A stretch of 64,000 nt of DNA from Candidatus Moraniibacteriota bacterium (GCA_030648835.1 JAUSGT010000003.1:1307-65306); one strand, 5' to 3'. Positions 10,565 through 62,473 are shown, counted from the first letter of the stretch. Program-made: numbers and translations. The notes: a model not told the origin generated them from the letters alone.

Positions 10565-10575
10565 GAAGACATACG

Positions 10576-33670: not shown

Positions 33671-33812
33671 AAAGTTTGGCTCTATAAAAGCAAAATACCG
33701 AGTAACGGAAAAGTAATTTATTTCTTTTTTGAGCGGGAGAGAAGAAAAAAATAATTATTTGGAAACAATGAGGGAAAAATGCCTCAAACAAAGCAATACG
33801 GCTCCAGTGTGA

Positions 33813-33841
33813 TTGACCGAGACATTTTTTTCTGGTATAAT
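33813..33841 (+). promoter_or_regulatory. Near-consensus sigma70 promoter with extended -10 (TTGACC-17-TGgTATAAT) with no ORF downstream
   Basis: TTGACC 33813-33818, 17-nt spacer, TGG then TATAAT 33836-33841. Confidence 0.6.
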
Positions 33842-33847
33842 AGGTAG

Positions 33848-34370: not shown

Positions 34371-34456
34371 TTGAAAAGAGTATATAATGATGACATACTT
34401 TTTTGAAAAGTTTTTTTGGGAGATGAACACTTATTCAATGACACGTCAACGTTTAT

Positions 34457-45428: not shown

Positions 45429-46514
45429 GTGCGTGTTTTTCGTAACTACTCGGCTTTTTCTATTGTTGCTTCGAGTGCCCTTCTCGTTTCGGCCAGCAAC
45501 CTTGCTCAGGGCAAGGATTCCAGCAGCTTACTCTTTGGCTATGTCAGTGGTGATACGGCAAGTGAGGTAACGCTTTCTTCCAAGCATCGTATCGCCGCTC
45601 AGACGAGCAAAAAAGAAAATCTCTCACTTGTGCCTCTGGCGAGCGGAGGGAATATCGTTGATCCGACTCAAAAAGACGAAACATCCCTTTTGGATATAGA
45701 GGGACTTCAGTCAGGGAGTCAAATAATACTTTCCTCACAGGCAAGCGCCATTACCAAAGACCCCGAGGAGGACGGTGGAGTGAAGATTTATACCGTAGAG
45801 CTGGGCGACACGGTGAGTGGAATCGCCGCCAAAAACAATATTACGGTTAACACCATTCTGTGGGCGAACGATATGGACAATGTGGATCAGATCAAACCGG
45901 GTGATCAGCTTTTTATCCTGCCGGTAGCCGGTCTCTCGTACGCCGTGAAGTCAGGTGACACCATCGATACCATCGCGGCAAAGTTCAAGGCGGAAAAAGA
46001 CAAAATTATCGCGTTCAATGAATTGCCCGCGACGGGAGAAATTCAGGCGGGTGATGTGATTATCATTCCGGATGGAAAGAAAGACGAAGTAGCGCGCCCC
46101 GTCAGTCCGGCTTCCGGTTTGGAGCGTCGTCAGTACGCGACTCCCTTCGGTGGGTCGGCTGCCGATATTTCCTCCGGTTTTCGTAAGCTCGATGGCAAAG
46201 CCGGTTCCGGACATCGATTTCCGTATGGCTATTGTACGTGGTATGTGGCTCAGAAACGCTATGTGCCATGGAGTGGCAATGCCGGTACGTGGCTCTATAA
46301 GGCCAAGGCGCTTGGGTACAGAACCGGGCGTACTCCGGCAGTCGGAGCTATTGTTGTGACAACGGAAAACCGTTACTATGGACATGTAGCCGTCGTGGAA
46401 AAAGTGAGTGGTGGTAATATCACGGTTAGTGAGATGAATTATGCCGGATGGGGCAAGACCGACCGACGAGTCCTCTCGGCATCCAGTCGGGTTATCAAAG
46501 GATTCATCTATTAA
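45429..46514 (+). CDS. Secreted peptidoglycan hydrolase: 2x LysM + C-terminal CHAP domain
   Basis: Two LysM repeats (YTVELGDTVSGIAAKNNITVNTILWAN; YAVKSGDTIDTIAAKFKAEKDKIIAFN) and CHAP domain (GYCTWYVAQKRY...GHVAVVEKVSGGNITVSEMNYAGWG); GTG start called. Confidence 0.7.
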   Translation: MRVFRNYSAFSIVASSALLVSASNLAQGKDSSSLLFGYVSGDTASEVTLSSKHRIAAQTSKKENLSLVPLASGGNIVDPTQKDETSLLDIEGLQSGSQIILSSQASAITKDPEEDGGVKIYTVELGDTVSGIAAKNNITVNTILWANDMDNVDQIKPGDQLFILPVAGLSYAVKSGDTIDTIAAKFKAEKDKIIAFNELPATGEIQAGDVIIIPDGKKDEVARPVSPASGLERRQYATPFGGSAADISSGFRKLDGKAGSGHRFPYGYCTWYVAQKRYVPWSGNAGTWLYKAKALGYRTGRTPAVGAIVVTTENRYYGHVAVVEKVSGGNITVSEMNYAGWGKTDRRVLSASSRVIKGFIY

Positions 46515-46686: not shown

Positions 46687-47751
46687 ATGAAAAAAGAATA
46701 TGACATCATTGGCGTGGGCAACCCGCTCCTCGATATTATTTTCGAGGTGGAGGAGGCTCTTCTCATTTCCCATAAACTGAAAAAGGGGGGCATGCATCTT
46801 GTCACGAGTGCCCAAAGCCAAAAAATCTTTGCCGGTTTGAAAAAGTATAAGAAAACTTTTGCTCCCGGCGGAAGCGCGGCAAATACCCTCTCTGGCGTAG
46901 GAGTGCTTGGCGGTAAAGGATTGTTTTTGGGGAGTATCGGGCGAGATAAACATGGCGATGCCTATCTGCAAGCCCTCTCCACAAGTGGTGTCAAGACAAA
47001 GCTTGCCCGGCATGCCAAAGAAAAAACCGGATCGGCAATCACGTTGATCACTCCGGGCGGCGAGAGAACATTTGTCACCTGTCTGGGTGCGGCTTCGTGT
47101 TTACGAGAGGAACATATTGCGGAGAAGGATATCCAAAAAAGTAAAATCCTCCACATCGAAGGTTACTTGTTGGAAGAGAAGAATACCCGTCGAGCGGTTC
47201 TTCGGGCGATGAACTTTGCCAGAAAACATGCTACACTGGTTTCTATTGATCTTTCCGACGCAGGAATTATAATGAGGAAGAAAGTTCTCATCAGAAATCT
47301 CATCAGGAAATACGCGGATATCGTTTTTGTCAACGAGGACGAGGCGTTCGCCTTTACCGGGGAAAAAGAACGCGCGGCTTTGGAAGTGATAGGTGATTTA
47401 TGCGATATAGCCGTGGTGAAGTTGGGAGCGCGCGGCAGTCTTATCAAGTCGCAGGGTCAGGTATACATGGTTGACCCTTACCGTGTGGTGGTAATGAATA
47501 CCAATGGCGCGGGTGATATGTACGCGGCGGGCTTTCTCCACGGATTGGCAGGTGGGCATGAGATCCCTCTGGCGGGCCAAGTAGCCAGCTGTGTCGCCGC
47601 GCTGGTAGTCTCCAGTCCGGGCGCCAGAATCCATACCCGACATCACAAAAAACTCAAGAATGTTCTGAAACTGTATTCTCAAAAAAAGAAAAAAAAGTTA
47701 CGCCCGGTAGTAGAATTTCGACCGACAAAAATTTTGAAAACATCTAAATAA
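46687..47751 (+). CDS. PfkB-family carbohydrate/nucleoside kinase (probable adenosine kinase)
   Basis: [11 protein letters not shown]-terminal motif, GGSAANT, C-terminal [17 protein letters not shown] (PfkB DTxGAGD motif); adjacent to ahcY. Confidence 0.65.
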
Positions 47752-47827
47752 GTATTATCTAAACATTTTTACCGAGACTTTCATATTGTGCACAGATAAA
47801 TGCATTGTCGAAGTTTCACTACTGGGT

Positions 47828-49240
47828 ATGAACGAAACACAAAATTATAAAGTGCGAGATATTGCCTTGCATGCCTTTGGCCGGAAGGAAATCGAGATGG
47901 CTGAAGAAGAAATGCCCGGGCTTTTGGCGTTGCGTAAAAAATATCAGGGGGAAAAACCGTTTGCGGGCGCGCGCATCGCCGGCAGTCTGCATATGACCAT
48001 CCAAACGGCGGTGCTTATCGAAACGCTTGTGGCGCTGGGAGCGACCGTTCGCTGGGCCTCCTGCAATATTTATTCGACGCAAGACCATGCCGCGTCCGCC
48101 ATCGCGGAAACGGGGACGCCCGTATTCGCGTGGAAAGAGGAAACGCTCGAGGAATATTGGTGGTGCACGGCGAAAATATTTGATTTTGGTGCTGATCAGG
48201 GCCCGCTTCTTATTGTCGATGACGGTGGAGACGCGACGCTTATGCTTCACAAGGGAGTGGAATGTGAAAAAAATACGGCGCTTTTGGAGAAGGACTATGC
48301 ACAGGCTTCGGAAGACGAACGTGAGTTGATGAAACGGTTGCGAACAATATATGAAATAGATAAACAGTTCTGGACAAAAAGAATCACAGCGGTTCGTGGT
48401 GTATCGGAAGAAACCACGACCGGCGTTCATCGTTTGTATCAAATGTTGGCCGAGAAGAAACTTTTGTTTCCGGCTATCAATGTGAATGACTCGGTAACCA
48501 AAAGCAAATTTGACAATCTGTACGGGTGTCGGGAGAGTCTGGTGGACGGAATCAAGCGCGGTACTGATGTCATGGTGGCGGGGAAAAGAGTGGTGGTGTG
48601 TGGCTACGGTGATGTGGGGAAAGGCTGCGCCCAAAGTATGCGCGGGTTTGGGGCGCGCGTGATCGTGACGGAAATTGATCCCGTGTGTGCCCTGCAGGCT
48701 GCCATGGAAGGGTATGAAGTGCGCACGGTGGAAGAGGTGATAAGCCAAGCGGATATTTTTGTGACGGCGACGGGCAATCAAGACGTTATCCGCGTGGAAC
48801 ATATGGAAAAAATGAAACATGACGCCATCGTCTGCAATATTGGACATTTTGATAACGAGATCCAAGTGGAAAAACTGGAACACTATCCGGGTATCCAAGA
48901 AATCGCGATCAAACCTCAGGTGGACAAATTTATTTTCCCCGATGGGCATGCCATTATTTTGCTTTCCCGTGGACGACTGGTAAACCTCGGTAATGCGACA
49001 GGCCATCCGAGCTTCGTCATGAGCACATCGTTTGCCAATCAGGTACTGGCCCAGATAGAGTTGTGGACAAAGCCGTATGCTATCGGGGTGTATACGTTGC
49101 CGAAGAGTCTTGATGAAGAAGTGGCGCGCCTCCATTTGTCCAAGCTGGGGGTTTCTCTCACTGAGCTGACTCCGGAGCAGGCAAAGTATATTGGTGTCCC
49201 GAAGAGCGGTCCTTACAAGGGAGAACACTATCGGTACTAG
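47828..49240 (+). CDS. ahcY: Adenosylhomocysteinase
   Basis: [29 protein letters not shown]-binding [31 protein letters not shown]-terminal [13 protein letters not shown]. Confidence 0.9.
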
Positions 49241-49364
49241 CCCCGCACTAACTTTGCTTTGTATTCACGAATAATCCCTGTTGTTTAAAGTTTGTGTTGT
49301 GTAAACTATATTTACTTTTTTTATCATAAATTGTTAGGAAAAATGAAGCAAAGTTAGTGCGGGG
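49241..49364. repeat. 19-bp perfect inverted repeat (CCCCGCACTAACTTTGCTT / AAGCAAAGTTAGTGCGGGG) flanking 86 nt of AT-rich DNA
   Basis: Left arm 49241-49259, right arm 49346-49364; directly abuts ahcY stop and the -35 of the metK promoter. Confidence 0.7.
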
Positions 49365-49399
49365 TTGACGGAAAAAATCGCCCTTGCTATAGTAGACCT

Positions 49400-49546
49400 A
49401 CAATTGAAAAAGTATCCAGAGTGAGGCGAGAGAATTGGCTCGTAGACCCTCCGGCAACCATTGATTAAAGGGTGCCACATCCAACCCGCAAGGGAAAGAT
49501 AGTTTCGTCGACATCTTTTCCCCTGTATGGGGATTTTATTTTTTAA
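49400..49546 (+). promoter_or_regulatory. SAM-I (S-box) riboswitch with intrinsic terminator, upstream of metK
   Basis: Aligns to S-box consensus: ATCCAGAGTGAGGCGAGAGAATTGGCTCGTAGACCCTCCGGCAACC...GGGTGCCACATCCAACCCGCAAGGG (cf. ATCAAGAGAGGTGGAGGGACTGGCCCGATGAAACCCGGCAACC...GGTGCCAATTCC); terminator CCCCTGTATGGGG + TTTTATTTTTT at 49520-49546; promoter TTGACG-17-TATAGT at 49365-49393. Confidence 0.6.
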
Positions 49547-49558
49547 GAAAAAAAGAGT

Positions 49559-50494
49559 ATGAAGACCGCGGAGTTCGTCACGCCAAAGCACCCGGATAAG
49601 ATGTGCGATCACATCGCGGATAGTATTTTGGACGCGCATTTGAAAGGAGATAAGAATAGCCGCTGTGCCGTGGAAGTGATGGGCGGTCACAACCTCGTGA
49701 CCATCAATGGCGAAGTGACGAGCCTTGCTACACCCGACATTGAGGCCATTGTCAAAGGGATTGTCGGCGCTGATTTCCGCGTCATCATAAACTTTGTGAA
49801 ACAGAGTCCGCAAATCGCTCAGGGAGTGAACACGGGCGGAGCGGGGGATCAGGGTATTATGAACGGCTATGCGACGAATGAGACTCCGAATTATATGCCG
49901 CGAGAATACGAATTGGCGCGCACGCTGTGCATGAAAATTTTTGAAAAGTATCCCTCTGACGGCAAGACGCAGGTGACCATTGATGGTGAGCGGGTAAAAT
50001 GCGTGGTGGCGAGCTTTCAAAACAGCAAAAACGCCGATCTTCTCCCCTTGGTAAAAAGCTTCATCGAGGCCGATGAGTATCTCATCAATCCGGCGGGCGA
50101 GTGGCAGCAGGGCGGTTTTGACGCCGATACCGGGGTTTCCGGTCGCAAACTGATTGTCGATAACTACGGGCCGGAAGTGACCATTGGCGGCGGTTCGTTT
50201 TCCGGCAAGGACTATACCAAAGTCGATCGTTCGGCCGCTTATATGGCGAGAAAAATCGCGGTGGATTATCTACGGAAAGAGAATGCCAAAGAAGTTTCGG
50301 CCAAAATTGCTTACGCTATCGGCAAGGCAGAACCGGTGATGGCGCGCGTCGTCGTGGATGGGAAAGAAATGGAGATCGAGGGGTATGATCTCTCTCCCAA
50401 GGGGATTCGCGAGTTTCTCAAGCTTGACAGTGTCACCTACACCGCTACTTCCGACTGGGGCCACTTCGGCAGAAACTTTTCGTGGGACAAATAA
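49559..50494 (+). CDS. metK: S-adenosylmethionine synthetase (compact 311-aa form)
   Basis: HPDKMCDHIADSILDAHL, GGAGDQGIMNGYATNETPNYMP, GGGSFSGKDYTKVDRSAAYMARKIA, WGHFGR all match MetK signatures. Confidence 0.85.
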   Translation: MKTAEFVTPKHPDKMCDHIADSILDAHLKGDKNSRCAVEVMGGHNLVTINGEVTSLATPDIEAIVKGIVGADFRVIINFVKQSPQIAQGVNTGGAGDQGIMNGYATNETPNYMPREYELARTLCMKIFEKYPSDGKTQVTIDGERVKCVVASFQNSKNADLLPLVKSFIEADEYLINPAGEWQQGGFDADTGVSGRKLIVDNYGPEVTIGGGSFSGKDYTKVDRSAAYMARKIAVDYLRKENAKEVSAKIAYAIGKAEPVMARVVVDGKEMEIEGYDLSPKGIREFLKLDSVTYTATSDWGHFGRNFSWDK

Positions 50495-50793: not shown

Positions 50794-53295
50794 ATGATTT
50801 TTTTGGGTGGAAATAAAAAGAAAAATGTTCTTAGGTTAAAGATGGTTTCTTTCTTGGTGCCTGTATTGCTTCTTTTTGGGAAAGTTAAAACTGCTCATGC
50901 TGTTGTTCCTCTTGTTGGATATGGGCTTTGGGCTGCGGGCGGTGCTGTAGCAGCATACTTTGGATCGGAGGCCGCAGGTAATATTGTTGTGTATGCATTC
51001 AAGTGGCTTCTTTATGGTATTTTTACCATGTTTGGGTGGCTGGCATCTTTAGCTATTTCTATTTTTGAGTGGGCAATAGACCCCAATGACGTTATTCTCC
51101 TTTTCAACAATCCTGGAGTGTATGAATCGTGGAAATTTGTGCGCGACTTCTTCAATCTATTTTTCATTCTCATTTTGCTTTATATCGCCTTTACGGTGGT
51201 GTTCCAGATTAATAAAGATTTCAAGAAGACCATATTGAGTCTGGTACTGGCGGCTCTCTACATCAATTTCAGTTTTCCCGTTTCGCGCGCGCTTATCGAT
51301 ATGACCAATGTGCCGATGTACTTCTTTGCCAATCAGATGATGGCGAGAAGTGCAGCACAGGGGACGGGAATTTTGGGTGGGGTGATGACCGCCTCACACA
51401 TAGCGGGGATACTTATTCCCGGAGCTGAAAAGGGAGGAGACTTTGAAACTAGTGAAGTAAGTGTTTCGCGCCTTTTGATGGCAATCGTGTTTATGTTCAT
51501 TTTTTCTATTACTTTACTCGTTTTGTCTATCATGTTCGTCATCCGGTTGGTAGCTTTGGTTATTCTTGTTATATTTTCTTCGGTAGGATTTGCGGCATCC
51601 ATCATTCCGGGAATGAGCAGTTATTCCAAGCAGTGGTGGGATAATTTTTGGAAATACGCACTCTTTGGTCCGGCGGCGATGCTGATGATTCTTGTTGCCA
51701 CGCGTTTTTTTGCCTCAATGGGTAATGATAGTGGGGCGCTTATGCAGAGTATGAAAGCTGTTACAGTAAATAATGTTGTGGCTTCAGAACAAACTTTTTT
51801 CGCATCCATGGCGTTGTTCACAATTCCGATTATTATGCTCTGGTTCGCGATGGGGTTGGCGCAGAAGATGTCCATCGCCGGCGCCTCCACAGTCGTCGGT
51901 CTCGGGCAGAAAGTAGCCAAGTGGGTAGGAAAACAAGCCACTCTTACGCCAGCAGCATTTCTCGGGCGTAAATATGAGAAGTTTATGACTACTCGGAAAG
52001 GTAAGGTTGGGGCAGTAACAAAGTGGCTTGCTCCCACGGCTGCTTATAAAGGTTGGGAAAAATGGCGAGAGCGATCGCACGAATTGGATCACAAGCCGGT
52101 AGAACAGGCGGGGGCGAAAATCAGTGACGAAATGGCAGTCGCTTATTCTACAACGCTTGGGCGGCTTCCTATCATCGGCTCGAAGGATCATACGGACCAT
52201 GCTTTCAAGAACTTTTCAGCCAATGCTGCCAAAGAACGGAAAGAAATTTCCGATATTTCTACCAACTCGGATTATGTCATCCATGAGCTTATCAATGCCA
52301 TCAAGGCTGAAGACGATGACAAGGTAGTGGGAGCTTTGCAGATTTTGGCTTCCAACAATGATTTGAACGATATGATGCACGTGATGGAGAGGATTCAAGA
52401 TGAAACCGGCGTCAATCTCGGTAAAGTGACAGAGGAAAATCCTACAGGAAGGGCCAGCAGCGAAATGAGCAGCGAAAATGCCAAGGAAGTTTTGAAAAAT
52501 ATGATGAAACATGCTGGGCTGAATGATGAAATGGCCGCTAAGAATATGCTCAATATTTCCAATACTGCCATTGCGGCCGGCAATGTCGGTATGGCCGGTT
52601 CTGCCAAATTGGGTGACGATGGTAAATTCAGAATTACTACCGATGAAGAGCAGGCTCAAATTGCTGCCGCTAAACTTCAGAATCTGGAAACTCAGGCTCG
52701 TCAGCGGACGCTCCATCACAACGCGATTTTCAAAGAAAAGGGGAAGTTCAATAAAGTAAAGGATGCCAGTGGCAATCTTGTCGATGAGGAAGTCGAAATG
52801 ATGGGCGAAGATGGCAAACCGAAAAAGGTCAGAGTTGCCCATTATGGCGGTATTAATGATCTGGCTGGCGAAGCGGTGTTGGGGACCATTACGGCAGCCG
52901 ACCTTCGTGAATCGCACCGTTCCCGTGATGATTTGAAGCGTGAAATTGCTATTCGTATGGAAGTTATCCGTGAGGGGAGTGGTGGAAAGGACTTAGAAGG
53001 CAATATAGTACCGCCCGAAGAAGTTGAGAAACTGAAAAAAGAGATGGAAGATGCTATGGAAAAAAATCCGAACCTTAAACATTATTTTAAGTTATTGTAT
53101 GCATATCAGACGGGTGTTCACTATGATAGTCAAAGTCCTGCAGATAAAGATGGAAAGGAAATAAAACCAAAGGAAGGACAAGAAGCCAAGGCGGCTCCGG
53201 CAGCTGCACCAGCGGAAACTCCGGCTGAAAAGCATGCAAGAGACAAGGCAGAAGCTAAGGCAAAAGCGGATGCACGTAATAATAGAGGACGTTAG
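50794..53295 (+). CDS. Putative VirB6/TrbL-like type IV secretion membrane protein with long hydrophilic C-terminal extension
   Basis: N-terminal ~380 aa with 6-7 TM helices, then ~450 aa charged/coiled region ending in Ala/Pro/Lys-rich tail; neighbours VirB4 and PrgI-like genes. Confidence 0.35.
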   Translation: MIFLGGNKKKNVLRLKMVSFLVPVLLLFGKVKTAHAVVPLVGYGLWAAGGAVAAYFGSEAAGNIVVYAFKWLLYGIFTMFGWLASLAISIFEWAIDPNDVILLFNNPGVYESWKFVRDFFNLFFILILLYIAFTVVFQINKDFKKTILSLVLAALYINFSFPVSRALIDMTNVPMYFFANQMMARSAAQGTGILGGVMTASHIAGILIPGAEKGGDFETSEVSVSRLLMAIVFMFIFSITLLVLSIMFVIRLVALVILVIFSSVGFAASIIPGMSSYSKQWWDNFWKYALFGPAAMLMILVATRFFASMGNDSGALMQSMKAVTVNNVVASEQTFFASMALFTIPIIMLWFAMGLAQKMSIAGASTVVGLGQKVAKWVGKQATLTPAAFLGRKYEKFMTTRKGKVGAVTKWLAPTAAYKGWEKWRERSHELDHKPVEQAGAKISDEMAVAYSTTLGRLPIIGSKDHTDHAFKNFSANAAKERKEISDISTNSDYVIHELINAIKAEDDDKVVGALQILASNNDLNDMMHVMERIQDETGVNLGKVTEENPTGRASSEMSSENAKEVLKNMMKHAGLNDEMAAKNMLNISNTAIAAGNVGMAGSAKLGDDGKFRITTDEEQAQIAAAKLQNLETQARQRTLHHNAIFKEKGKFNKVKDASGNLVDEEVEMMGEDGKPKKVRVAHYGGINDLAGEAVLGTITAADLRESHRSRDDLKREIAIRMEVIREGSGGKDLEGNIVPPEEVEKLKKEMEDAMEKNPNLKHYFKLLYAYQTGVHYDSQSPADKDGKEIKPKEGQEAKAAPAAAPAETPAEKHARDKAEAKAKADARNNRGR

Positions 53296-53316
53296 TTTTA
53301 CGGTTTAGTATAAAGT

Positions 53317-54969
53317 ATGGAACTCCAAAACAAGCAACAACAATACGAAGATATCTACGCACGGGCGTTGGACGCGATCGAGCACTGGGATGCTGTGTTG
53401 GCTTGGAATATTTATTGTGAGTTGGAGAAGTTTCTCGGGGGGTTGCCAATGGAGCAAAAACAAGAGCCCGAGCTTGCCAAAGAAATCGTAATTCTCAAGC
53501 GCAGTCTGCTTGCGGTGGGTTTCCCCGCGTTGCCGAGGGAGGGCGCGGTGAGGCTTTTTCGTGAGCACATCCTGGATTTTTTTCGGGTGGATGTGGATTT
53601 TAAAGAACGGCTTTTGACACGCTATACCTTTGTTGGTTATGGAGAAAAAGAGGATGAGCAAAAACGTTTACAAGAAGCGCTGCTCCAAAATCAAGAACGT
53701 CTTGGGCAGTTTACTTTGGGTGAGTGGGTGAAACTTTTTGAGCGGCACTTTAAATTAGAAACGCGCGACAAACAGGCAGTGACGACTTTCTTGACACAAA
53801 CTGGTGAGGTGGCATCACTGACGAAGTCAGAACAATCAATTTTACGCCAGATTCTTTCTGTTTATGACCAATATATAGCGCACGTGGCTTTGGATGAATT
53901 TGATATGGCTGTGATAGGGGCTAGTGTAAATCAGGAACAGGCTTCCCGTCATGCTACCAGTCGAGGAACTTCGTCACCCAGTAGGGCAGATCAAAAAGCA
54001 GCAGTTTCTCTTCCGCTTCTGCAAGCGTTATCGAAGTATGAGCGGCTCGGGGAGCAGTTGATTACTCGGGGACGCATCAAAGTGGGGTCACAAACGGAGC
54101 CGGTGCGACCGTCGCTTCTTTACTGGCTCAAATATTACCGTGATGAACTGGGTATCGGACAGCACTCGAGTGTGGAGCGTGGGAATTTCTTATTCCGTTC
54201 CGAAAACGGCAAGAATCTTTCTGCCGAAGAGCGCGAACGAATCAATATCATCTTGAAATCGGTAGAAGAGAATTTTCCGCTCTCGATTGATCCCAAGAAC
54301 CAAGAAATTATCTTCCCCACCAGCAACGCTTTCAGCATAACTGCAGCGAGTAGGCCCGCTTCGACAACGCCCCTGGTCTCGCGAGGCGAAAATTCAGGCG
54401 GGAGAAGTAGCCCTGTCTTCAATGTTTCGCCTGTTCGTGGTAGCTATCCCAACAGTGTTGCCGGTGTGCCCGCTTTTGTTTCGGCACCTGTATTCAAAAG
54501 TGCTCAAACATCGGTTTCTCTGCCTCTTCCAAAAGTCGCGACTATCGGCACCCCGGCATTCTTTGTCCCCAAGCCCGAAGAAAGTGAAATTCGTGAGAAA
54601 AAACCGCCAACCGCGAGTCCTATCAGCTTTTTTGACCCACATGAAGGGGATGGGAAAGCCAAGGAAGCCATTATTCCGCCTGTGCAAACCAAAAGTGTTA
54701 GTTTTTCCACGAGTCATATCTTTCCGGCAGAAAAAGAAGCGGCTGAGGTACGCTCCCGTATGAGTGAGACTTCAATGAAGCAAGTGGTTGTCCCAGAGAA
54801 AGAGACACCGCCTCTACCTCCTCAGCCCGCTCTGCCTTTGGCTTCCCAGGATGAGCCTGTTGTTGCCCCTACGTCCCAATCGGCTCCAAATTTTTCACAG
54901 CCGAACCCTATACCAAAAAAGTTAAACTCATTCCGTATTCGCCCGGTCAGTCTTGGCGGAAGGGATTAG
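53317..54969 (+). CDS. Hypothetical protein (T4SS-cluster associated), Pro/Ser-rich C-terminus
   Basis: 550 aa, no TM, no recognised domain. Confidence 0.35.
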   Translation: MELQNKQQQYEDIYARALDAIEHWDAVLAWNIYCELEKFLGGLPMEQKQEPELAKEIVILKRSLLAVGFPALPREGAVRLFREHILDFFRVDVDFKERLLTRYTFVGYGEKEDEQKRLQEALLQNQERLGQFTLGEWVKLFERHFKLETRDKQAVTTFLTQTGEVASLTKSEQSILRQILSVYDQYIAHVALDEFDMAVIGASVNQEQASRHATSRGTSSPSRADQKAAVSLPLLQALSKYERLGEQLITRGRIKVGSQTEPVRPSLLYWLKYYRDELGIGQHSSVERGNFLFRSENGKNLSAEERERINIILKSVEENFPLSIDPKNQEIIFPTSNAFSITAASRPASTTPLVSRGENSGGRSSPVFNVSPVRGSYPNSVAGVPAFVSAPVFKSAQTSVSLPLPKVATIGTPAFFVPKPEESEIREKKPPTASPISFFDPHEGDGKAKEAIIPPVQTKSVSFSTSHIFPAEKEAAEVRSRMSETSMKQVVVPEKETPPLPPQPALPLASQDEPVVAPTSQSAPNFSQPNPIPKKLNSFRIRPVSLGGRD

Positions 54970-55089
54970 TCGCAAATGGAATTATGAATAGGGAATCGAG
55001 AATCACGAAAAAAGAAGAGAGCATGTTATAATAAGCAGGTATTGAATACATAATTCTCAATTCTTGATTCATGATTCCTCTTCAAAACT

Positions 55090-55497
55090 ATGATGTTCAG
55101 TGTTCCGCAATTTATCGATGTTGAAGACAAGATAGCCGGGCCGCTCACCTGGAAACAACTCCTTTGGATGATTGGTATGGGAGCAGTACTCCTGGTTTCT
55201 TTCAATGCTTTTGATACCTCGTTGTTTTTCATCATAGCTGTCCCGACGGTTCTTATCTTCACGGCCTTGGCTTTCTACCGCCCCAACGGGTTCCCTCTGA
55301 CGACATTTATCTTTTATGCCATTCTTTTTCTTTTCCGCCCGAAAGTGTCCGTCTGGGAACGCCCGCTGGAAAAACAATCGCTAGCCAAAGCACCGGTGGA
55401 GAAAACAGACGCGGCGGATACGCATGCCAAACATATCAATCAGGAAAAACTTACCGAATTGGCGCACATTTTGGATAGTCAAGGTGGGGGAAAGTAG
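55090..55497 (+). CDS. PrgI/VirB3-like small membrane protein
   Basis: 135 aa; FIDVEDKIAGPLTWKQLLWMIGMGAVLLVSF followed by second TM; architecture typical of PrgI family proteins encoded next to VirB4. Confidence 0.45.
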   Translation: MMFSVPQFIDVEDKIAGPLTWKQLLWMIGMGAVLLVSFNAFDTSLFFIIAVPTVLIFTALAFYRPNGFPLTTFIFYAILFLFRPKVSVWERPLEKQSLAKAPVEKTDAADTHAKHINQEKLTELAHILDSQGGGK

Positions 55498-55553
55498 AAT
55501 CAAGAGTCAAGAATTAAGAACCACAAAAAAGAAAGAAAATAAACAACAAAACA

Positions 55554-56243
55554 ATGGAGCTTTTGAAGCCGAAAAATAAAGGAGGGAGTACGTCCGGCAC
55601 GCAGAAATATGTGGAAGTGGATGAGATCCGCGATGGTGTTATCGTGCTCAAAAGTGGGGCTCTCCGCGCTGTCGTGCTTGTTTCATCACTCAACTTCGAC
55701 CTCAAATCAACGGAAGAACAGGATGCCATTATCAATCAGTACCAACAGTTCTTGAACTCGCTCGACTTTCCTGTCCAGATCGTTATTAGCTCTCGCCGTT
55801 TCAATATTGAACCATACCTCGATCTTCTCGAGAAAGAGGTAAAACAGCAAGAGAACGAACTTTTGCGTTTCCAGATTTCCGAATATAAGTCTTTCATCAA
55901 AAACCTGACGGAAGTGTCGAATATTATGTCGAAGTATTTTTATGTTGTCGTGCCTTTTTCTTCCTCGGAGGATGAGCAGGGTGGTTTTATTGACAAGATT
56001 CTCGGCACTTTTCGTTCCAAGCAGTCTGTTGGCGCGCATGGCGTTCTCTTCGAAACGTACAAAGCTCAACTTTTTCAGCGCGTCAATCATATCGCGACAG
56101 CTCTCGGGGCGGCGGGCGTCAACGCGGTACCGCTCGGTACGGAAGAAATTATCGAACTGCTTTACAACAGTTACAATCCATCACTCTACACGGCGGCGGT
56201 TATAAAAAATGTTGAGGATATCGAGCTTGGACCAAGCAAATGA
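55554..56243 (+). CDS. Hypothetical T4SS-associated protein
   Basis: 229 aa soluble protein immediately upstream of VirB4 ATPase gene. Confidence 0.35.
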   Translation: MELLKPKNKGGSTSGTQKYVEVDEIRDGVIVLKSGALRAVVLVSSLNFDLKSTEEQDAIINQYQQFLNSLDFPVQIVISSRRFNIEPYLDLLEKEVKQQENELLRFQISEYKSFIKNLTEVSNIMSKYFYVVVPFSSSEDEQGGFIDKILGTFRSKQSVGAHGVLFETYKAQLFQRVNHIATALGAAGVNAVPLGTEEIIELLYNSYNPSLYTAAVIKNVEDIELGPSK

Positions 56244-56381
56244 AAAATGCAAAAATCAACTCATCCCAAGTAACCCCCATTGTCATTCTGAGCAGAGCGA
56301 AGAATCCCGTTATAAAAAGCAACTGCTTCTTCCATTCGAGATCCTTCACTCCGTTCAGGACGACAGCCAAGTAAGGGAAGA

Positions 56382-58268
56382 ATGAAATTAAATAAAAAAG
56401 ACATGGCACAAAGAACTCCCATTATTGATATAGAGGCACAAGGAGCGGACGCTTCCAAGAAGAAAAGCGTGCTTGATATTTTTAATCGTCCAAAAAAAAT
56501 GAGCGCTGCCGAGACGCTCTATCAGCGCGGGGTTGCCACCATCAGGGACTTGATCGCACCTCCGGCCATCAAGCTCAGCCCCAACACGATGCAGATCGGT
56601 GAGATCGTGTCGCGTACATATTTTGTTATCACCTACCCGCGCTTCCTCTCCACCAATTGGTTCTCGCCGATTATCAATATTGATTTCGCGATGGATATCG
56701 CGCTCTTTGTGCACCCTATCGATACGGCGGAAATTTTGAAGACACTTCGCAAGTCGTCGACGCAGGTGCAGTCACAGATTCGTATCGAAACTGAAGGCGG
56801 GAAAGTGCGCGACCCGGTCTTGGAAACCGCGCTCGAAGACATCGAGGGTTTGCGTAACAACCTGCAACAGGGTACGGAGAAATTTTTCCGTTTCGGTCTC
56901 TATATGACTGTCTATGGGAGTGACGAGAAAGATCTGAACGGGAAATGTCAATCGATAGAGGCTATTCTCGAAGCTCAGCTGGTATATACGAAACCGGCGG
57001 TGATGCGTATGGACCAGGGGTTCGCGGCGACTCGGCCGTTGGCGAACGATGTTTTGGATGTCGCCAACAACCTGAATACGGAACCGCTCTCGACCACTTT
57101 CCCCTTCGTTTCTTCCGATCTCTCTTCCAATGAAGGTATTCTCTATGGTATCAATCGCCACAACAACAGTTTGATATTGTTTGATCGTTTCAAGATGGAA
57201 AACGCCAATATGGTGGTGTTCGCCAAATCCGGCGCCGGCAAAAGCTACACTGTGAAATTGGAAGTTTTGAGATCGATGATGTTCGGATCAAGCGTCATTA
57301 TCATCGATCCGGAGAATGAATACAAGCATTTGTGCGAGGCCGTGAGTGGGACGTTTTTGAAGGTTTCGCTCAATTCCGATGTTCATCTCAATCCTTTTGA
57401 TTTGCCGAAGAAAATCGAGGATGAGGATAGCGTGGGGCTGTTCCGCAACACTATTGCCAATCTCATCGGGCTGCTTCATCTGATGCTCGGTTCCGTGACA
57501 CCGGAAGAGGACTCTATTCTCGATCGCGCTATCCGGGAAGCATATGCCATCCGCGATATTACAGAGACGAGTGATTTTTCGATCCTTACTCCAAACTCAT
57601 TTCCGACCATGTCCGATCTCTACGCGGTGTTGGAAAATATGGAGGGAGCAGAGTCGCTTGCGGCGCGCTTGGAGCGCTATACGGAAGGGATTTTTGGCGG
57701 TTTTCTCAACAAGCAAACCAATGTGGAAACGGACAATCAGCTGGTCGTCTTCAACATTCGTGATTTGGAAGATGAGCTTCGGCCGATTGCGATGTATATC
57801 ATCCTGCAATTTATCTGGAACGAAATTCGTTCGCATATGAAGAAACGCGTGATTGTGGTGGATGAGGCGTGGGTGATGATGCAGCACGAGGATGCCGCGG
57901 CCTTTCTTTTCGGTATCGCCAAACGTTGTCGCAAATACTATACGGGATTGACGACTATTACCCAGGATATCGGGGACTTTGCTTCTTCGCGTCATGGCAA
58001 ACCGATTATTACCAACTCCTCGATGCAACTTCTCTTGCGCCAATCGCCATCCTCCATTGATCTGGTGGCGGAAACATTCTACCTCACGGATCACGAGAAA
58101 TTTCTCCTGCTTGAGAGCAATGTGGGAGAGGGAATTTTCTTTGCCGGGTCCAAACACGCGGCTATCAAAGTGATCGCCTCCTACAGCGAAGATCAGATTA
58201 TTACTTCCGACCCGCGGCAATTACTCGAGATTGAACAGGCCAAAAAAGATTTCGATGCAGGGCAGTGA
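56382..58268 (+). CDS. VirB4/TrbE/CagE-family type IV secretion ATPase
   Basis: Walker A VVFAKSGAGKSYTVKLEV, Walker B RVIVVDEAWVMM, downstream ITQDIGDF and C-terminal motifs of VirB4-type ATPases; 628 aa. Confidence 0.75.
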   Translation: MKLNKKDMAQRTPIIDIEAQGADASKKKSVLDIFNRPKKMSAAETLYQRGVATIRDLIAPPAIKLSPNTMQIGEIVSRTYFVITYPRFLSTNWFSPIINIDFAMDIALFVHPIDTAEILKTLRKSSTQVQSQIRIETEGGKVRDPVLETALEDIEGLRNNLQQGTEKFFRFGLYMTVYGSDEKDLNGKCQSIEAILEAQLVYTKPAVMRMDQGFAATRPLANDVLDVANNLNTEPLSTTFPFVSSDLSSNEGILYGINRHNNSLILFDRFKMENANMVVFAKSGAGKSYTVKLEVLRSMMFGSSVIIIDPENEYKHLCEAVSGTFLKVSLNSDVHLNPFDLPKKIEDEDSVGLFRNTIANLIGLLHLMLGSVTPEEDSILDRAIREAYAIRDITETSDFSILTPNSFPTMSDLYAVLENMEGAESLAARLERYTEGIFGGFLNKQTNVETDNQLVVFNIRDLEDELRPIAMYIILQFIWNEIRSHMKKRVIVVDEAWVMMQHEDAAAFLFGIAKRCRKYYTGLTTITQDIGDFASSRHGKPIITNSSMQLLLRQSPSSIDLVAETFYLTDHEKFLLLESNVGEGIFFAGSKHAAIKVIASYSEDQIITSDPRQLLEIEQAKKDFDAGQ

Positions 58269-58310
58269 GGTTGGGGGAGAATGATAAGAGAAATTTGAAT
58301 ACTTACGCTT

Positions 58311-58892
58311 ATGGCATCGGAACCGTCCGCGGCATCAAAAGCCGCTTCTCAAGCAAGACGGCGTGCTATGGGGAAAGCACGGCGGGCCGTACGCAAGGCG
58401 GTACCCAAGACAAAATTTACTGGAGAGAAACCATCCTTCATGCTCTATGGTGGAGCGACCATTATTGCACTTTTCAAAGATTTGCTTGATTTTGTGGGGA
58501 TTGGGTCACTTCCGGCTATTGGCACGGTAGTAACTATTTGTTTCAGCTTGCTTATTTTTATTTTATTAACGGTTTTCGATAACTCTGGAGGATGGAACAA
58601 AACCAACAGGGTGATAATGCGCGGGCTGGTCTTTACCTTAGTGGCTATTTTTGAGGGAATTTTCTTTGGGCTTAATTTTTTGCCATTGGAAACATTTACT
58701 GTGATTGGACTTTATCTTTTTGCACGCCATACATGGAAAGAAGAGGATATAAAAGCTAAAGAGGAAAATCGACTCTCGGCACAGCAAACACGCGAGGAAC
58801 AGATACAAGAAGGGCGGTACGCGAGGATAGAAGAGGAAAGAAGGCAGGAAGAAATGGCACGAGAGCAAGCAATGACTGGTGGTAACAGTTGA
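58311..58892 (+). CDS. Hypothetical membrane protein (possible pilin/VirB2-like component)
   Basis: Basic N-terminus, 3-4 TM segments, charged C-terminal tail; in T4SS-like cluster. Confidence 0.3.
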   Translation: MASEPSAASKAASQARRRAMGKARRAVRKAVPKTKFTGEKPSFMLYGGATIIALFKDLLDFVGIGSLPAIGTVVTICFSLLIFILLTVFDNSGGWNKTNRVIMRGLVFTLVAIFEGIFFGLNFLPLETFTVIGLYLFARHTWKEEDIKAKEENRLSAQQTREEQIQEGRYARIEEERRQEEMAREQAMTGGNS

Positions 58893-58924
58893 TAGATAAT
58901 AGGAGGGGGGTATAATTTAAGAGT

Positions 58925-59581
58925 ATGTTGGAAACACTTTCGAAAAATCGGCGGTTTGTGGTGACGGGGTTGCTCGTTGTGTTTTCCATTTTGTTTTTGG
59001 GATTTTTCCCCGAGAACGATCGCTTGAGTCCGGCATTCCAGGGGCTGATTGTCAGTCTGGCATTTTTCTTGGTCATTCCTCTCTTGTATAGTAAAATAGT
59101 GCTAAGAGAGTCCTTGAAAAATATCGGCTTGCAGAAGGGAAATTTTGGAGCAGGGGTGCTGATTGGCACCGCTTCCGTCATCCTCGCCGTCATACTGGTG
59201 GTCTTCTTGGCGTTCACATTTCCTCCATTCCGCGCGCAGTATGTCTTTCCGGCTTTGATTGAAACAGGCTTTGTATGGTTTGTGCTTTATGAGCTTGTTC
59301 TGGTTCCTTTCATGATTATTCTGTACGAGGTGTTTTTCCGCGGGCTGGTGGAATTGCTCTGGCTCAAAGCGTTCGGACTCTGGGCCGTTTTCATCCAGAC
59401 AGGGATATTTCTCGGTTTTTCATACTTGAGCCATGACGTTTCTTGGCAGAGGCTTCCCTTCCTCATTTTCTGCCCGCTGGCGGGGTTTATCGCCTATCGC
59501 TCAGGATCTCTCTGGTATTCGTTCGCGGCCAGCTGGGTGTTCCTCTTTTTGACTGATATTTTTTTCCTCGTATTTCGTTAA
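58925..59581 (+). CDS. CPBP-family (CAAX/Abi-like) intramembrane protease
   Basis: Polytopic; LYEVFFRGL (E-E-x-x-x-R-like motif) and later SHD/His in TM context resemble CPBP motifs. Confidence 0.4.
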   Translation: MLETLSKNRRFVVTGLLVVFSILFLGFFPENDRLSPAFQGLIVSLAFFLVIPLLYSKIVLRESLKNIGLQKGNFGAGVLIGTASVILAVILVVFLAFTFPPFRAQYVFPALIETGFVWFVLYELVLVPFMIILYEVFFRGLVELLWLKAFGLWAVFIQTGIFLGFSYLSHDVSWQRLPFLIFCPLAGFIAYRSGSLWYSFAASWVFLFLTDIFFLVFR

Positions 59582-59590
59582 AAAATTCTT

Positions 59591-62473
59591 ATGAGGTTTT
59601 CTCGCAAAAAACAAACAGCATTCTTGAGTTTTTTTCTTATCCTGGAATTTTTTGTTGTGAGCGCCCTGCCTGCTTCGGCCGGACTGTTTGGTGGTGGAGG
59701 GAGTATGCCATCGGCATCGAGTATGCTATCCGAGATGGAGCAGCGCTATCATCTGAATCTTGGTGCTATACAAAATCAAGGCGAGGGATTCAATGTATCG
59801 GGTGATAAAAACCCGGCGCCGGAAGTCTCACTTTTTTTCAGTCCCAGCGATCCGAAAGAGGGTCAGAAACTTTCGGCGAAAGCGTTTCCTATTTATTTTT
59901 CGAATACTGAAGAATCACTTTACTATACCTGGTATCTGAAGCGAGCGGGTTGTGATTTGGATGATAATGTTACGGATAATGACACTCTTGATCTTTGTAA
60001 TGCTTCCGATCCCAATCGTGGAACATCTCGCCGAGAAGATCCGGGCGATATTACTGTTGAGGATTGGAAAATCGAGGCGATGAGAATTCTTGTGCAAAAT
60101 GGGTATGACAAAGAGGATGCCAATTATGCTACGAACACAGATGACAGTGACGGGTACAGAGCAAAGTTTGGTGGAGATAACAAAGTAAATCCGCCAAATT
60201 ATTGCTACGCCCATGACAGTGTTTCAGGAATAAATTATGAGCTTGCGGAAAATATAAATGAGCCATCTTTTGGTGATTGTGGGGATGGTTATACCCCGAT
60301 GTGTCTGGTTGGTGAGGGGCAGGCAAATGCAGGTACAGTAGACTTTACCAGTCCTAGTCAACAGAGCGTTTTTAATTTCACCGATACCGGCAAGTGTTAT
60401 GTTTCCGGTTACCCGACTTGCTCAGCGAGTACCCCTACCTGCAGCGTTGGTTTTGCTCGTTGCGTGGCAAACTCCGCTGCAGAAAATGATTGTGGAACGG
60501 CGATTTCTTCTTGTACTGCCGGTACGGATTCAGGCGATGCCAATCCGGTATGTGAACATCTCTTCCCGAATGCCCCAGGACATAAAACAGCACAACGGGA
60601 GAGTAATGATTCCTATTCTTTCAATCCAGATGAAGAAGAATTTTGGGGTACCAATCCACAGGACCCCAGTACGGCAGACAATGGTAATAAAGACGAAGCC
60701 AATGTAGCCGGCCTAGGCCAATCAACGTTTGCTTGGAACTATGTTTCCGGAGATCAGGTGGGGGTAGCGGTCGAGGGGTCTTCGATGATTCCGACGAAGC
60801 ATAACGATTCTTCGTATATGATTATGTGGGCTTTCCCGAAAAAAGACTGTCCCGTAACGAATACGGGTTCGTATACGCAATCCATCCGTGGGTATACGGT
60901 TACCATACAGGCAGTGGATGTGGAAGGCGAAGATACGTTTGATCTGAATGACTGTATCAAAAAAAACTTGGTTGATCCGACGCAGGGTGGGCAGGCGACG
61001 AATCTCGATGTCAGTGTGACGGCGACTCCGGACAATCCTATTAACGATAGTACTGATGATAAGAGCGGAGATGTTGTTGTGGTTCAAACAAATGTAAACA
61101 ATGCTCAGCACAATGTGACGGATATATTTTTTGATTGGAGAGTAGAAATAAAAGATGATATGAATTTTAATGACAGTAACGGTAGGCTTGACATTACTGA
61201 AAAATTGCGAGAGTGGGGACTTTTGGGTAACACCAGAGGGAATGCTCTTGATAGTATTCGGATGAAACTGGATATTTTGGATAATAATACGTACAAGTTT
61301 AGTGATGACAGTAAACTTTCTGATTATTTGAATGATGGTGTCGGATATTTGCGTTTCAAATCCAGTGTGACGGAGAACTTTTCCGGTTCAGCTGTTCGTA
61401 AGGGGAAAAGCGATGTTATCGTGAAATTTACATCAACAGACAAGAAAATTATTGCCTACAGAGCGGGAGTATCATCCGGGAGAGTGACGATTGCAGGAGG
61501 GGGAGCAGGCGAGATTTGTCCTGATCCTACTCAAAATCCTCCAGCCCCCGCTTACGAACAGGCCCTTGATCGAGCTACGTGTCGGGTAATTAAAAATGAT
61601 ATTATTGGCTTAAAAGTTGAAAGTTCTAGCGGTGTTTCTTTATCGAATTTCTATTGGACCGTGAACGGCAGTCCGCTGATTTGTTCTACTAAGGTTTCTA
61701 CTGCCTGTAGCGATACAGAGCAGAGGAATGTGAACTTTTTTCCCGTGACGGGGAATCTTGGGGATACTTATACTGTGACGGTGACGGGGAGTGATGTGAA
61801 TACGGGCAACACATTGACGTTGACACGGACTTTTGTTGTAGTGTCACCGGAAGTTTCCATAGTATCCTCGAATAGAGATATCGCTTGGCCGAGACTTCTC
61901 GGACAGTACAGGGATATTACGGGCAATACCGCTGTTTGCCCCGAGGGGCTCTGCAATGATGAGAGTACATCCATGTTTGAGGCATTTCCCGGCAGTACGC
62001 TTGGTTTTCGCGCTGTATTTATTCCCGGTTCTCTTGAGGGTATAGCAGAAAAAAAATGGTCTCTTGATGGAGTAGCGACAAACGTAAATACTTCAGGAGA
62101 AATCGGGTTTGTAGCCGATAAATTGGTAGGTGGAATATATAATATAGGATTGACAGCTCAAGTAAAACAGCCAAATGAAACTCGGCGCGCCCTGCTTGAC
62201 ATTTGGGGGATTTCGCCTTTTGATTCTCCGGAAATAAATTTCTCTACGGCTATTCAGGTACAGCTACAGAGTCAAGATCTCGCTGTAGGGCCGCAGAATG
62301 GCCCACGAAAATATCTGGCCGCTATTGTATCGTATATTCCGGCATCAGTGATGTTTACATTCCGCATATTTTTGAGTGGCATACTTATTCTCTTTGTGAC
62401 CGGCTTTCTCTACACGCTTCTTGAGGATCGCCGAGCAAAAGCCCTCGAGTCTCCCTCCTCGGGAAGAGAGTAA
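59591..62473 (+). CDS. Large (960 aa) Cys-rich secreted protein with C-terminal membrane anchor (putative surface adhesin / pilus-associated)
   Basis: Signal peptide FLSFFLILEFFVVSALPASA; >30 Cys; C-terminal TM (ILILFVTGFLYTLL) followed by basic RRAK. Confidence 0.5.
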   Translation: MRFSRKKQTAFLSFFLILEFFVVSALPASAGLFGGGGSMPSASSMLSEMEQRYHLNLGAIQNQGEGFNVSGDKNPAPEVSLFFSPSDPKEGQKLSAKAFPIYFSNTEESLYYTWYLKRAGCDLDDNVTDNDTLDLCNASDPNRGTSRREDPGDITVEDWKIEAMRILVQNGYDKEDANYATNTDDSDGYRAKFGGDNKVNPPNYCYAHDSVSGINYELAENINEPSFGDCGDGYTPMCLVGEGQANAGTVDFTSPSQQSVFNFTDTGKCYVSGYPTCSASTPTCSVGFARCVANSAAENDCGTAISSCTAGTDSGDANPVCEHLFPNAPGHKTAQRESNDSYSFNPDEEEFWGTNPQDPSTADNGNKDEANVAGLGQSTFAWNYVSGDQVGVAVEGSSMIPTKHNDSSYMIMWAFPKKDCPVTNTGSYTQSIRGYTVTIQAVDVEGEDTFDLNDCIKKNLVDPTQGGQATNLDVSVTATPDNPINDSTDDKSGDVVVVQTNVNNAQHNVTDIFFDWRVEIKDDMNFNDSNGRLDITEKLREWGLLGNTRGNALDSIRMKLDILDNNTYKFSDDSKLSDYLNDGVGYLRFKSSVTENFSGSAVRKGKSDVIVKFTSTDKKIIAYRAGVSSGRVTIAGGGAGEICPDPTQNPPAPAYEQALDRATCRVIKNDIIGLKVESSSGVSLSNFYWTVNGSPLICSTKVSTACSDTEQRNVNFFPVTGNLGDTYTVTVTGSDVNTGNTLTLTRTFVVVSPEVSIVSSNRDIAWPRLLGQYRDITGNTAVCPEGLCNDESTSMFEAFPGSTLGFRAVFIPGSLEGIAEKKWSLDGVATNVNTSGEIGFVADKLVGGIYNIGLTAQVKQPNETRRALLDIWGISPFDSPEINFSTAIQVQLQSQDLAVGPQNGPRKYLAAIVSYIPASVMFTFRIFLSGILILFVTGFLYTLLEDRRAKALESPSSGRE

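Follow-up and report, generated by a model that had tools for sequence, protein, structure and literature searches.

Which kind of machine is encoded by a chromosomal gene cluster that carries a VirB4-type ATPase and no visible gene for DNA processing? The question is raised by a 64,000-nucleotide stretch of the genome of a Candidatus Moraniibacteriota bacterium (GCA_030648835.1, JAUSGT010000003.1:1307-65306; hereafter the window, with positions counted from its first letter). Positions 50794-62473 of the window had been predicted to encode a minimal, non-conjugative apparatus resembling type IV secretion systems (T4SS), of the kind reported in the candidate phyla radiation (CPR). We examined the locus by hidden Markov model (HMM) searches, structure prediction and a synteny comparison with related loci, and the results agree with this proposal: the VirB4 and PrgI proteins score above the cut-offs of their families, nearly all relatives with an informative title belong to Patescibacteria, and no conjugation-specific gene is found nearby. 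The cluster is very probably a vertically inherited chromosomal T4SS of Candidatus Moranbacteria (Patescibacteria, class Paceibacteria), of the Patescibacteria type and without a link to DNA-processing genes. This type of T4SS is derived from the monoderm conjugation machinery of mating-pair formation type FATA (MPF-FATA; pGO1/pSK41-like). The module comprises nine genes, which encode a peptidoglycan hydrolase, a VirB6-class protein, PrgI, a TrsD-like protein, VirB4 and four lineage-restricted proteins.

All eight open reading frames (ORFs) of the originally described cluster were found on the plus strand with exactly the predicted coordinates and lengths, and are separated by intergenic gaps of 9-138 nt. 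They are not chance ORFs: each has hundreds of homologues, and identical spacing of the eight genes is seen in the NCBI locus tags of five other metagenome-assembled genomes (MAGs). Three of the products, of 960, 833 and 550 amino acids (aa), are on record with identical sequence as hypothetical proteins in a Candidatus Moranbacteria MAG (Q7S04_04535, Q7S04_04500 and Q7S04_04505, respectively), where they lie on a contig of 150,745 bp. The eight-gene description was incomplete, as the module includes a ninth part that had been overlooked, a LysM-CHAP hydrolase encoded at 45429-46514.

The central genes encode core parts of a T4SS. The 628-aa protein (56382-58268) matches the NCBIfam model conju_CD1110 with an E-value of 2e-105 and 353.7 bits (cut-off 325), over positions 145-730 of the 752 in the model. 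Further matches are to the Pfam P-loop_TraG family (4e-28) and to the Mbov_0397, TraC-F and VirB4_CagE models, and phmmer searches related it to PrgJ (3.3e-43) and TraE (7.6e-38). The Walker A motif GAGKS (residue 284, positions 57231-57245) and the Walker B motif VVDEAW (residue 492, positions 57855-57872) were both located, so that the proposed VirB4/TrbE ATPase is confirmed at the level of family and motif. The best family models are those of MPF-FATA types (CD1110 and Mbov_0397), and we infer that this VirB4 falls within the Patescibacteria clade that is nested in MPF-FATA.

The 628-aa protein covers the C-terminal five-sixths of a full-length VirB4. The preceding gene (55554-56243) encodes a 229-aa protein that aligns with the CD1110 VirB4 model (positions 2-126), the model of the mycoplasma VirB4 Mbov_0397 (positions 101-233) and the NCBIfam TrsD/TraD family (4.3e-6); its precomputed Pfam family is TraC-like (PF26593). 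Since the two products match the CD1110 model side by side, at 2-126 and 145-730, VirB4 is divided here between two genes, one for the N-domain and one for the ATPase, and judged by these matches the 229-aa protein is a TrsD-like, detached N-terminal domain of VirB4. The TrsD-like gene is separate from virB4 in all of the 76 related loci in which it could be assessed (see below), usually at a distance of 8-20 nt, and the spacer in the window is 138 nt. This spacer contains a stable hairpin on the plus strand (56280-56366; minimum free energy -31.6 kcal/mol), whose arms are GTCATTCTGAGCAGAGCGAAGAATC and its imperfect complement; the hairpin does not occur in the loci of the other genomes, where the two genes nearly abut.

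Upstream of the TrsD-like gene, a 135-aa protein (55090-55497) had been described as PrgI/VirB3-like. It exceeds the Pfam PrgI cut-off (1.2e-10, 42.2 bits, cut-off 27) and has two transmembrane (TM) segments by hydropathy. A membrane partner of the PrgI family accompanies the ATPase. The two intergenic regions around prgI (54993-55521) contain arrays of a GAATCAA-like heptamer, at 54993-55010 (plus strand), 55053-55077 (minus strand) and 55497-55521 (plus strand), to which the heptamer is confined. It was matched five times against 0.21 expected, and the arrays form a 29-nt inverted repeat around prgI. Similar arrays are found upstream of prgI or after virB4 in six related loci (L001, L002, L006, L007, L009 and L042). 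A binding site for a regulator is one possible reading of these arrays, and a tract for slipped-strand phase variation is another.

The first gene of the cluster (50794-53295) encodes an 833-aa protein, for which a VirB6/TrbL-like polytopic architecture with a hydrophilic tail had been proposed. This architecture was observed: hydropathy revealed 6-8 hydrophobic segments in the first ~360 residues, with a TM bundle at ~60-360, followed by a hydrophilic C-terminal half of ~430 aa. Because a Lys/Arg-rich segment precedes it, this ~430-aa domain is probably cytoplasmic. The class assignment comes from three weak but concordant lines. First, an AlphaFold2 model built from 49 sequences (mean pLDDT 83, and >95 at residues 470-790) was compared with 350,542 PDB chains by Foldseek, and ranks 1-4 were all TrwI/VirB6 of R388 (probability 0.89-0.97, E-value 0.12-0.35, TM-score about 0.4); a match in a viral library annotated TrbL/VirB6 was also obtained (probability 0.80). 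Second, when the family profile was aligned by hhalign with 36 reference T4SS proteins, TraL (pSK41), TcpH (pCW3) and PrgH (pCF10) were ranked 1-3, with a probability of at most 23%. Third, among 49 family members scanned against NCBIfam, 14 matched the CD3337/EF1877 mobilome membrane protein (best 3.7e-6), seven the pLS20_p028 conjugation membrane protein and two the Bacteroides TraJ. The protein of the window itself has no Pfam or NCBIfam match, a tblastn search against 72,556 plasmids returned nothing, and PF19590, which is precomputed on two homologues, was not matched in a fresh scan. Weak one by one but concordant, the three lines place the 833-aa protein in the VirB6 class, and with its long C-terminal half it fits the term "extended VirB6" as used in PMC12857230.

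Extended VirB6 proteins such as TcpH of pCW3 (832 aa), ConG of ICEBs1 and CD3337/EF1877 share with the 833-aa protein an N-terminal multi-TM region followed by a large hydrophilic C-terminal domain, which adds up to ~830 aa. The sequence similarity is marginal, however, and the C-terminal domain of the 833-aa protein (residues ~470-790, window positions 51800-53295) is poorly conserved, with a per-block identity within the family of 11-34%, and has no significant PDB fold match.

The hydrolase that completes the module (45429-46514, plus strand) has a signal-like N-terminus, two LysM domains (Pfam, 4.5e-22) and a CHAP domain (2.5e-19). By phmmer, the CHAP domain is similar to TraG/TrsG of pSK41 (1.1e-15) and PrgK of pCF10 (1.5e-9). 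In 36 of 47 relatives, the hydrolase gene ends no more than 250 nt upstream of the VirB6-class gene. The two genes stay adjacent even when relocated: in six loci of a distant subclade (L066, L069, L072, L074, L078 and L080), the hydrolase gene lies ~10 kb downstream of virB4 and is followed by the VirB6-class gene where the locus continues. On the strength of its domains and position, the LysM-CHAP hydrolase is a VirB1 analogue and a part of the conserved module. In the window it is separated from the rest of the module by pfkB-ahcY-metK (46687-50494), a gene set found at that place in none of the 80 related loci and thus specific to the window genome. Upstream of metK, which is unusually short (311 aa), there is a SAM-I riboswitch (RF00162, 57.5 bits, 49409-49505).

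The 80 related loci were collected by a back-translated pattern scan with the VirB4 protein as query, using one genome per species, and gene order was mapped by tblastn of the window proteins against them and then by ORF mapping. Presence was counted among loci that extend to the expected position, and colinearity among loci with at least five of the genes. VirB4 identity to these loci is about 73-94%. Of the relatives with an informative title, nearly all are MAGs assigned to Candidatus Moranbacteria/Moraniibacteriota or to a "Patescibacteria group"; many third-party annotation records are labelled "Bdellovibrionales", apparently wrongly. The order hydrolase, 833-aa protein, 550-aa protein, PrgI, TrsD-like protein, VirB4, 193-aa protein, CPBP-like protein and 960-aa protein was colinear in 63 of 63 loci. 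PrgI was present in 73 of 73 loci and the TrsD-like protein in 76 of 76, and the 550-aa, CPBP-like and 960-aa proteins in 59 of 69, 63 of 75 and 60 of 72, respectively. The loci in which the last three were undetected (10, 12 and 12, respectively) represent essentially one distant subclade (L066-L080), which accounts for all absences of the CPBP-like and 960-aa genes. Members of this Moranbacteria/Parcubacteria subclade (L066, L069 and L071-L080) have a VirB4 that is 73-76% identical and retain PrgI-TrsD-VirB4. Other unannotated ORFs follow virB4 in these loci.

Could the locus be an ordinary integrative and conjugative element (ICE), or the decayed remnant of one, that lies in this chromosome by chance? 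Its VirB1-like CHAP, VirB3, TrsD, VirB4 and VirB6-class proteins are all homologous to Gram-positive conjugation proteins, and a tyrosine recombinase gene is located 6 kb upstream (43878-44819). This recombinase, however, is of the XerC/XerD type (2e-73 and 1e-71), which indicates a role in chromosome dimer resolution. No relaxase, type IV coupling protein (T4CP), VirB11, replication or partition gene was detected among the ~58 window proteins (roughly the ORFs of at least 110 aa, smaller ones being outside the scan) and in ~10 kb further downstream, so that the reported lack of relaxase, VirD4 and VirB11 holds over ~74 kb. The GC content of the cluster (0.46-0.49) equals that of the flanks, with no discontinuity. 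In addition, the gene order is kept in all 63 loci of related species while VirB4 diverges from 94% to 73% identity, which fits vertical inheritance, and housekeeping genes of the S-adenosylmethionine (SAM) cycle with their own riboswitch sit inside the module. Given the missing conjugation genes, the XerC/D-type recombinase, the conserved order and the normal GC content, an ordinary ICE is ruled out within the 74-kb view, and we consider an ICE or its remnant a highly improbable explanation overall.

The flanks of the cluster within the window are of a housekeeping nature: tRNAs and genes for asparaginase, UDG, a DHH phosphoesterase, FtsH, a TilS-like protein, guanylate kinase, an S1 protein, GyrA, IspG, PNPase, a Mg-chelatase-like ATPase, KsgA, UbiA and PcrA/UvrD. 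The XerC/D-type recombinase, an adenosine-kinase-like PfkB, AdoHcy hydrolase, MetK and a cyclophilin (PPIase) are further neighbours.

This setting can be compared with what has been described for Patescibacteria as a whole. In a survey of 3,035 Patescibacteria genomes, the VirB4 proteins formed one monophyletic clade within MPF-FATA (Quinonero-Coronel et al. 2025, Microb Genom; PMC12102498). In that survey, TrsD is the most frequent companion of virB4, followed by PrgI/VirB3 and VirB6, and VirB8 is scarce; a link between VirB1 homologues and virB4 is particular to Paceibacteria; VirB2-like pilins lie near virB4 in many genomes, relaxases almost never occur, and ksgA is a common neighbour (PMC12102498). 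The Moranbacteria locus resembles these systems in being chromosomal, with housekeeping flanks and ksgA nearby, an MPF-FATA-type VirB4 with TrsD next to it, PrgI/VirB3, VirB6 and a VirB1-type hydrolase, and in that no relaxase, nearby T4CP or VirB8 was found. It differs in that the locus yielded neither a VirB2-like pilin gene nor a pilin array, in its extended VirB6-class protein (833 aa), and in four conserved genes that are absent from the descriptions of the survey, which detected no adhesins such as PrgB and does not mention CPBP-like proteins (PMC12102498). Thus, the core system has already been published (Wang et al. 2023; Quinonero-Coronel et al. 2025), and what had not been described is the Moranbacteria-specific accessory set together with the apparent lack of a VirB2-like gene in the locus.

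A similar comparison can be made with the pGO1/pSK41 Tra (Trs) system of Staphylococcus aureus. There, TraC (135 aa), TrsD (227 aa) and TraE (672 aa) form a triad that corresponds in order and sizes to the genes of the window, giving a VirB3-like (135 aa), TrsD (227-229 aa) and VirB4 (628-672 aa) series in both. The CHAP hydrolase similar to TraG/TrsG (1.1e-15) and a TrbL-family channel protein are also shared. On the other hand, pSK41 is a conjugating plasmid, with the T4CP TraK, relaxases, the topoisomerase TraI, the CagC/VirB2-like TraB and TraF/H/J, none of which is found here, and its TraL has 305 aa as against 833 aa for the protein of the window.

The four lineage-restricted genes were analyzed individually. 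Pfam and NCBIfam scans gave no match for the 550-, 193- and 960-aa proteins, as for the 833-aa protein, and PDB sequence searches with single sequences and profiles returned nothing meaningful for these four families and that of the 218-aa protein. When the five family profiles were compared with the 36 reference proteins (from pSK41, pCW3 and pCF10) by hmmsearch and hhalign, a VirB6-class signal was obtained for the 833-aa family only.

The 550-aa protein (53317-54969) contains no TM segment by hydropathy. It has a conserved core of ~110 residues (~225-335) and a Pro/Ser-rich tail with the conserved C-terminal motifs SFSxxHxxPAEKE and NPFxIRPVS. Its homologues number only 164, and those with an informative source name all come from Moranbacteria/Patescibacteria; neither 40 members of the family nor its profile gave a Pfam or PDB match. 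A profile similarity to PrgL/PrgM (8 bits) was rejected as compositional. This soluble orphan protein could be an adaptor or a substrate.

The small membrane protein downstream of VirB4 (58311-58892, 193 aa) has a basic N-terminus, two strong hydrophobic helices (possibly four) and a charged C-terminal tail; D57, D60, G65 and P125 are conserved in the family alignment. It was considered as a VirB2/T4SS pilin and rejected, as 40 members yielded neither such a Pfam match nor any other consistent one. The family also lacks a PDB match and similarity to the 36 reference T4SS proteins.

The next gene (58925-59581) encodes a 218-aa protein with about six hydrophobic segments by hydropathy, which had been described as a CPBP-type intramembrane protease. 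Homology at the level of the family is supported: the window protein itself reaches 0.0031 and 18.2 bits against the Pfam Rce1-like family, below the cut-off of 22.4, and a match at E<=0.1 was obtained for 23 of 40 relatives, the best with 2.8e-7. The protease part of the description probably does not hold. CPBP proteins (CAAX proteases/bacteriocin-processing enzymes, Rce1-like proteins and myxosortases) share with the 218-aa family a polytopic topology and the ExxxRG of motif 1, which is invariant here as E135xxxR139G140 in an alignment of 40 sequences. In contrast to them, Tyr takes the place of the first Glu in EExxxR, and the FxxxH and HxxxN/D motifs are missing, there being no His column in this alignment that is invariant or at least 90% conserved. 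Because a conserved His is lacking, the known CPBP catalysis is unlikely, and the sequences suggest that the 218-aa protein is probably a CPBP homologue that is not a canonical protease.

The last and largest product is the 960-aa protein (59591-62473), predicted to be Cys-rich and secreted with a C-terminal anchor. The features seen are in keeping with this prediction: an N-terminal hydrophobic signal (residues 10-28, ...PASA/G), C-terminal hydrophobic helices (903-952), and 20 Cys, all conserved and 17 of them invariant among 48 sequences of ~50% identity. Between the termini, there are ~820 residues of beta-sandwich (Ig/FN3-like) domains with a Cys-knot region at 205-321. In the AlphaFold2 model (pLDDT 76.8), a signal helix and a linker of low confidence precede successive beta-sandwiches and two C-terminal helices, and a Foldseek search of the PDB retrieved Ig/FN3/cadherin adhesion molecules, fimbrial subunits/pilins, S-layer proteins and complement MG domains (E-values 4e-9 to 1e-5). 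The modelled fold thus appears to be a generic extracellular multi-Ig-like architecture, with which a role as adhesin would be consistent. The further suggestion that the protein sits at a pilus tip is unsupported, as no VirB2-like pilin was detected in the locus.

At the C-terminus, the conserved sequence KYLAAIxSYIPASV is followed by a TM helix and a basic tail; it reads ...SYIPASVMFTFRIFLSGILILFVTGFLYTLLEDRRAK..., with no LPXTG. Among 489 word-indexed homologues, all those with a source name are called hypothetical and none carries a Pfam domain; where an organism is given, it belongs to Moranbacteria, Minisyncoccota or the unclassified bacteria. A profile search of 1.84 billion representatives found only 485, so the family is lineage-restricted. 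The protein is reminiscent of PrgB/PrgC of pCF10 and TraO of pIP501, which are likewise large, secreted, cell-anchored, multi-domain and beta-rich proteins of T4SS operons. Unlike PrgB/PrgC, this putative adhesin has a C-terminal TM helix instead of an LPXTG/sortase signal and ten probable disulfides, and it showed no sequence similarity to PrgA, PrgB or PrgC. At 20267-22883 of locus L081, ~8-10 kb past the window end, genes for a ferric-reductase-like membrane protein, a 415-aa orphan and a DsbA/thioredoxin-like protein were observed; they could be a disulfide-forming machinery for the 20-Cys surface protein.

Do these last genes belong to the T4SS at all? It might be argued that the last two or three are an independent, co-transcribed surface-protein module, for example an envelope or S-layer-like protein with a CPBP-derived partner for sorting or maturation, which would act on its C-terminal signal of motif, TM helix and basic tail. 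The 193-aa, CPBP-like and 960-aa proteins are unlike any of the 36 reference T4SS proteins; the distant subclade (L066-L080) retains PrgI-TrsD-VirB4 without the CPBP-like and 960-aa genes, which are 9 nt apart and always co-occur; S-layer proteins are among the structural matches of the 960-aa protein; and myxosortases of the CPBP family process tripartite C-terminal sorting signals (PMC11980579; bioRxiv 10.1101/2023.06.07.544157). However, the three genes follow virB4 directly and in constant order in every locus of the subclade that does possess them, with intergenic gaps of 9-42 nt. Moreover, proteolysis of the known kind is unlikely for a CPBP-like family without a conserved His, and the C-terminal signal of the 960-aa protein lacks the invariant Cys of myxosortase substrates. 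We regard an independent module as unlikely and treat the three genes as probable parts of the T4SS.

Several points weigh against this assignment of the locus to a non-conjugative, Patescibacteria-type T4SS. The placement of VirB4 in the Patescibacteria clade is an indirect one, based on taxonomy and the best-matching family models, and the statistics for VirB6 are weak (Foldseek E-value 0.12, hhalign at most 23%, no Pfam or NCBIfam match of the window protein). No VirB8-like component was detected among the module proteins by sequence and profile searches, including PrgL, TcpC and VirB8 models. Likewise, PF04956 and PF18895 retrieved no VirB2-like pilin, either from the window proteins or, at E<=1, from 40 members of the 193-aa family, and no module protein is similar to TraB/CagC of pSK41, the MPF-specific pilin HMMs of PMC12102498 having been outside the search. 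The four accessory proteins are tied to the T4SS by conserved operon position only. As to the non-conjugative part, VirD4-like genes are distant from virB4 in most Patescibacteria (PMC12102498), and a T4CP or relaxase could lie elsewhere in this genome. Finally, the system is known here from its genes, and its expression, assembly, substrate and direction of transport are at most predictions.

By analogy with related systems, the module may work as follows. The CHAP hydrolase would open the peptidoglycan locally, PrgI and TrsD would couple a VirB4 hexamer to the VirB6-class channel, and VirB4 would energise assembly and translocation. The 960-aa protein, if Sec-exported and disulfide-stabilised, may project from the membrane as a contact or adhesion element and be the counterpart of the LPXTG adhesins, such as PrgB, of Gram-positive systems. 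The whole would be a machine for epibiotic interaction with a host cell, serving protein export or the import of host material and not conjugation. For Southlakia epibionticum, a homologous locus has been shown to be essential when the cells grow as epibionts (Wang et al. 2023, Cell, as summarised in PMC12857230 and PMC11665869). The role of that T4SS is called "completely unknown", and both effector delivery and uptake are proposed (PMC12857230, PMC11665869).

The direction of transport deserves separate consideration. An uptake machine would import DNA or other host macromolecules, as do ComB of Helicobacter and the archaeal Ced system. T4CP and relaxase are missing nearby, as for ComB; VirB4 weakly matches the archaeal DNA-import ATPase CedB (5e-13); the organism is, judged by its lineage, auxotrophic; and uptake has been named as a candidate role of the Saccharibacteria T4SS (PMC11665869). 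Nevertheless, the CedB match is far below those to conjugative VirB4 families (2e-105), and the module contains no ComEC-like or DNA-binding component. In addition, the 550-aa protein, whose tail is disordered and whose C-terminus is basic, seems more like an export cargo or adaptor, although only by inference. An uptake machine is thus a minority possibility in our view. Export of proteins to the host, for which we see roughly even prospects, is somewhat likelier than import, which seems rather doubtful.

A more speculative proposal, which we put forward tentatively and expect is more probably wrong than right, is that the Moranbacteria T4SS has swapped the VirB2-type pilus known from other Patescibacteria for a dedicated surface organelle encoded in the operon. 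The 960-aa protein, its Ig-like domains locked by disulfides, would be the stalk or adhesin for host contact, the CPBP-like and 193-aa proteins would hold or mature the C-terminus of this protein, and the 550-aa protein would be a cargo or adaptor that replaces the coupling protein. If true, this would be an undescribed accessory T4SS architecture, and its components would be candidates for host docking in CPR bacteria other than Saccharibacteria.

Some features of the window outside the module were also observed. A low-GC stretch at 10000-14600 (0.35-0.40 versus ~0.48), with tRNA-Arg and tRNA-Ala at its upstream end, contains a 583-aa ORF (11534-13285) without a Pfam or NCBIfam match and, behind it, a gene for a bacterial TSP3-repeat protein (13619-14602); the stretch is possibly a small island of acquired DNA. 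At 33700-34450, ~750 nt of an otherwise gene-dense genome hold no convincing ORF and no Rfam match at the gathering threshold. Three small co-directional ORFs at 34.4-35.9 kb were considered as a pilin array and rejected, since inspection of the sequences by eye suggests a YraN-like nuclease, a DksA/TraR-like protein and signal peptidase II.

A large part of bacterial diversity belongs to Patescibacteria, which apparently live attached to other microbes, and in the single species tested the T4SS is essential. The locus described here shows the layout of this system in Moranbacteria, a lineage without a cultured member, and identifies two easily missed parts of it: the N-domain of VirB4 as a separate TrsD-like gene, and a VirB1-like hydrolase displaced from the other genes. 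The four conserved orphan genes are candidates for host recognition, anchoring and cargo, foremost among them the 960-aa protein paired with a degenerate CPBP homologue.

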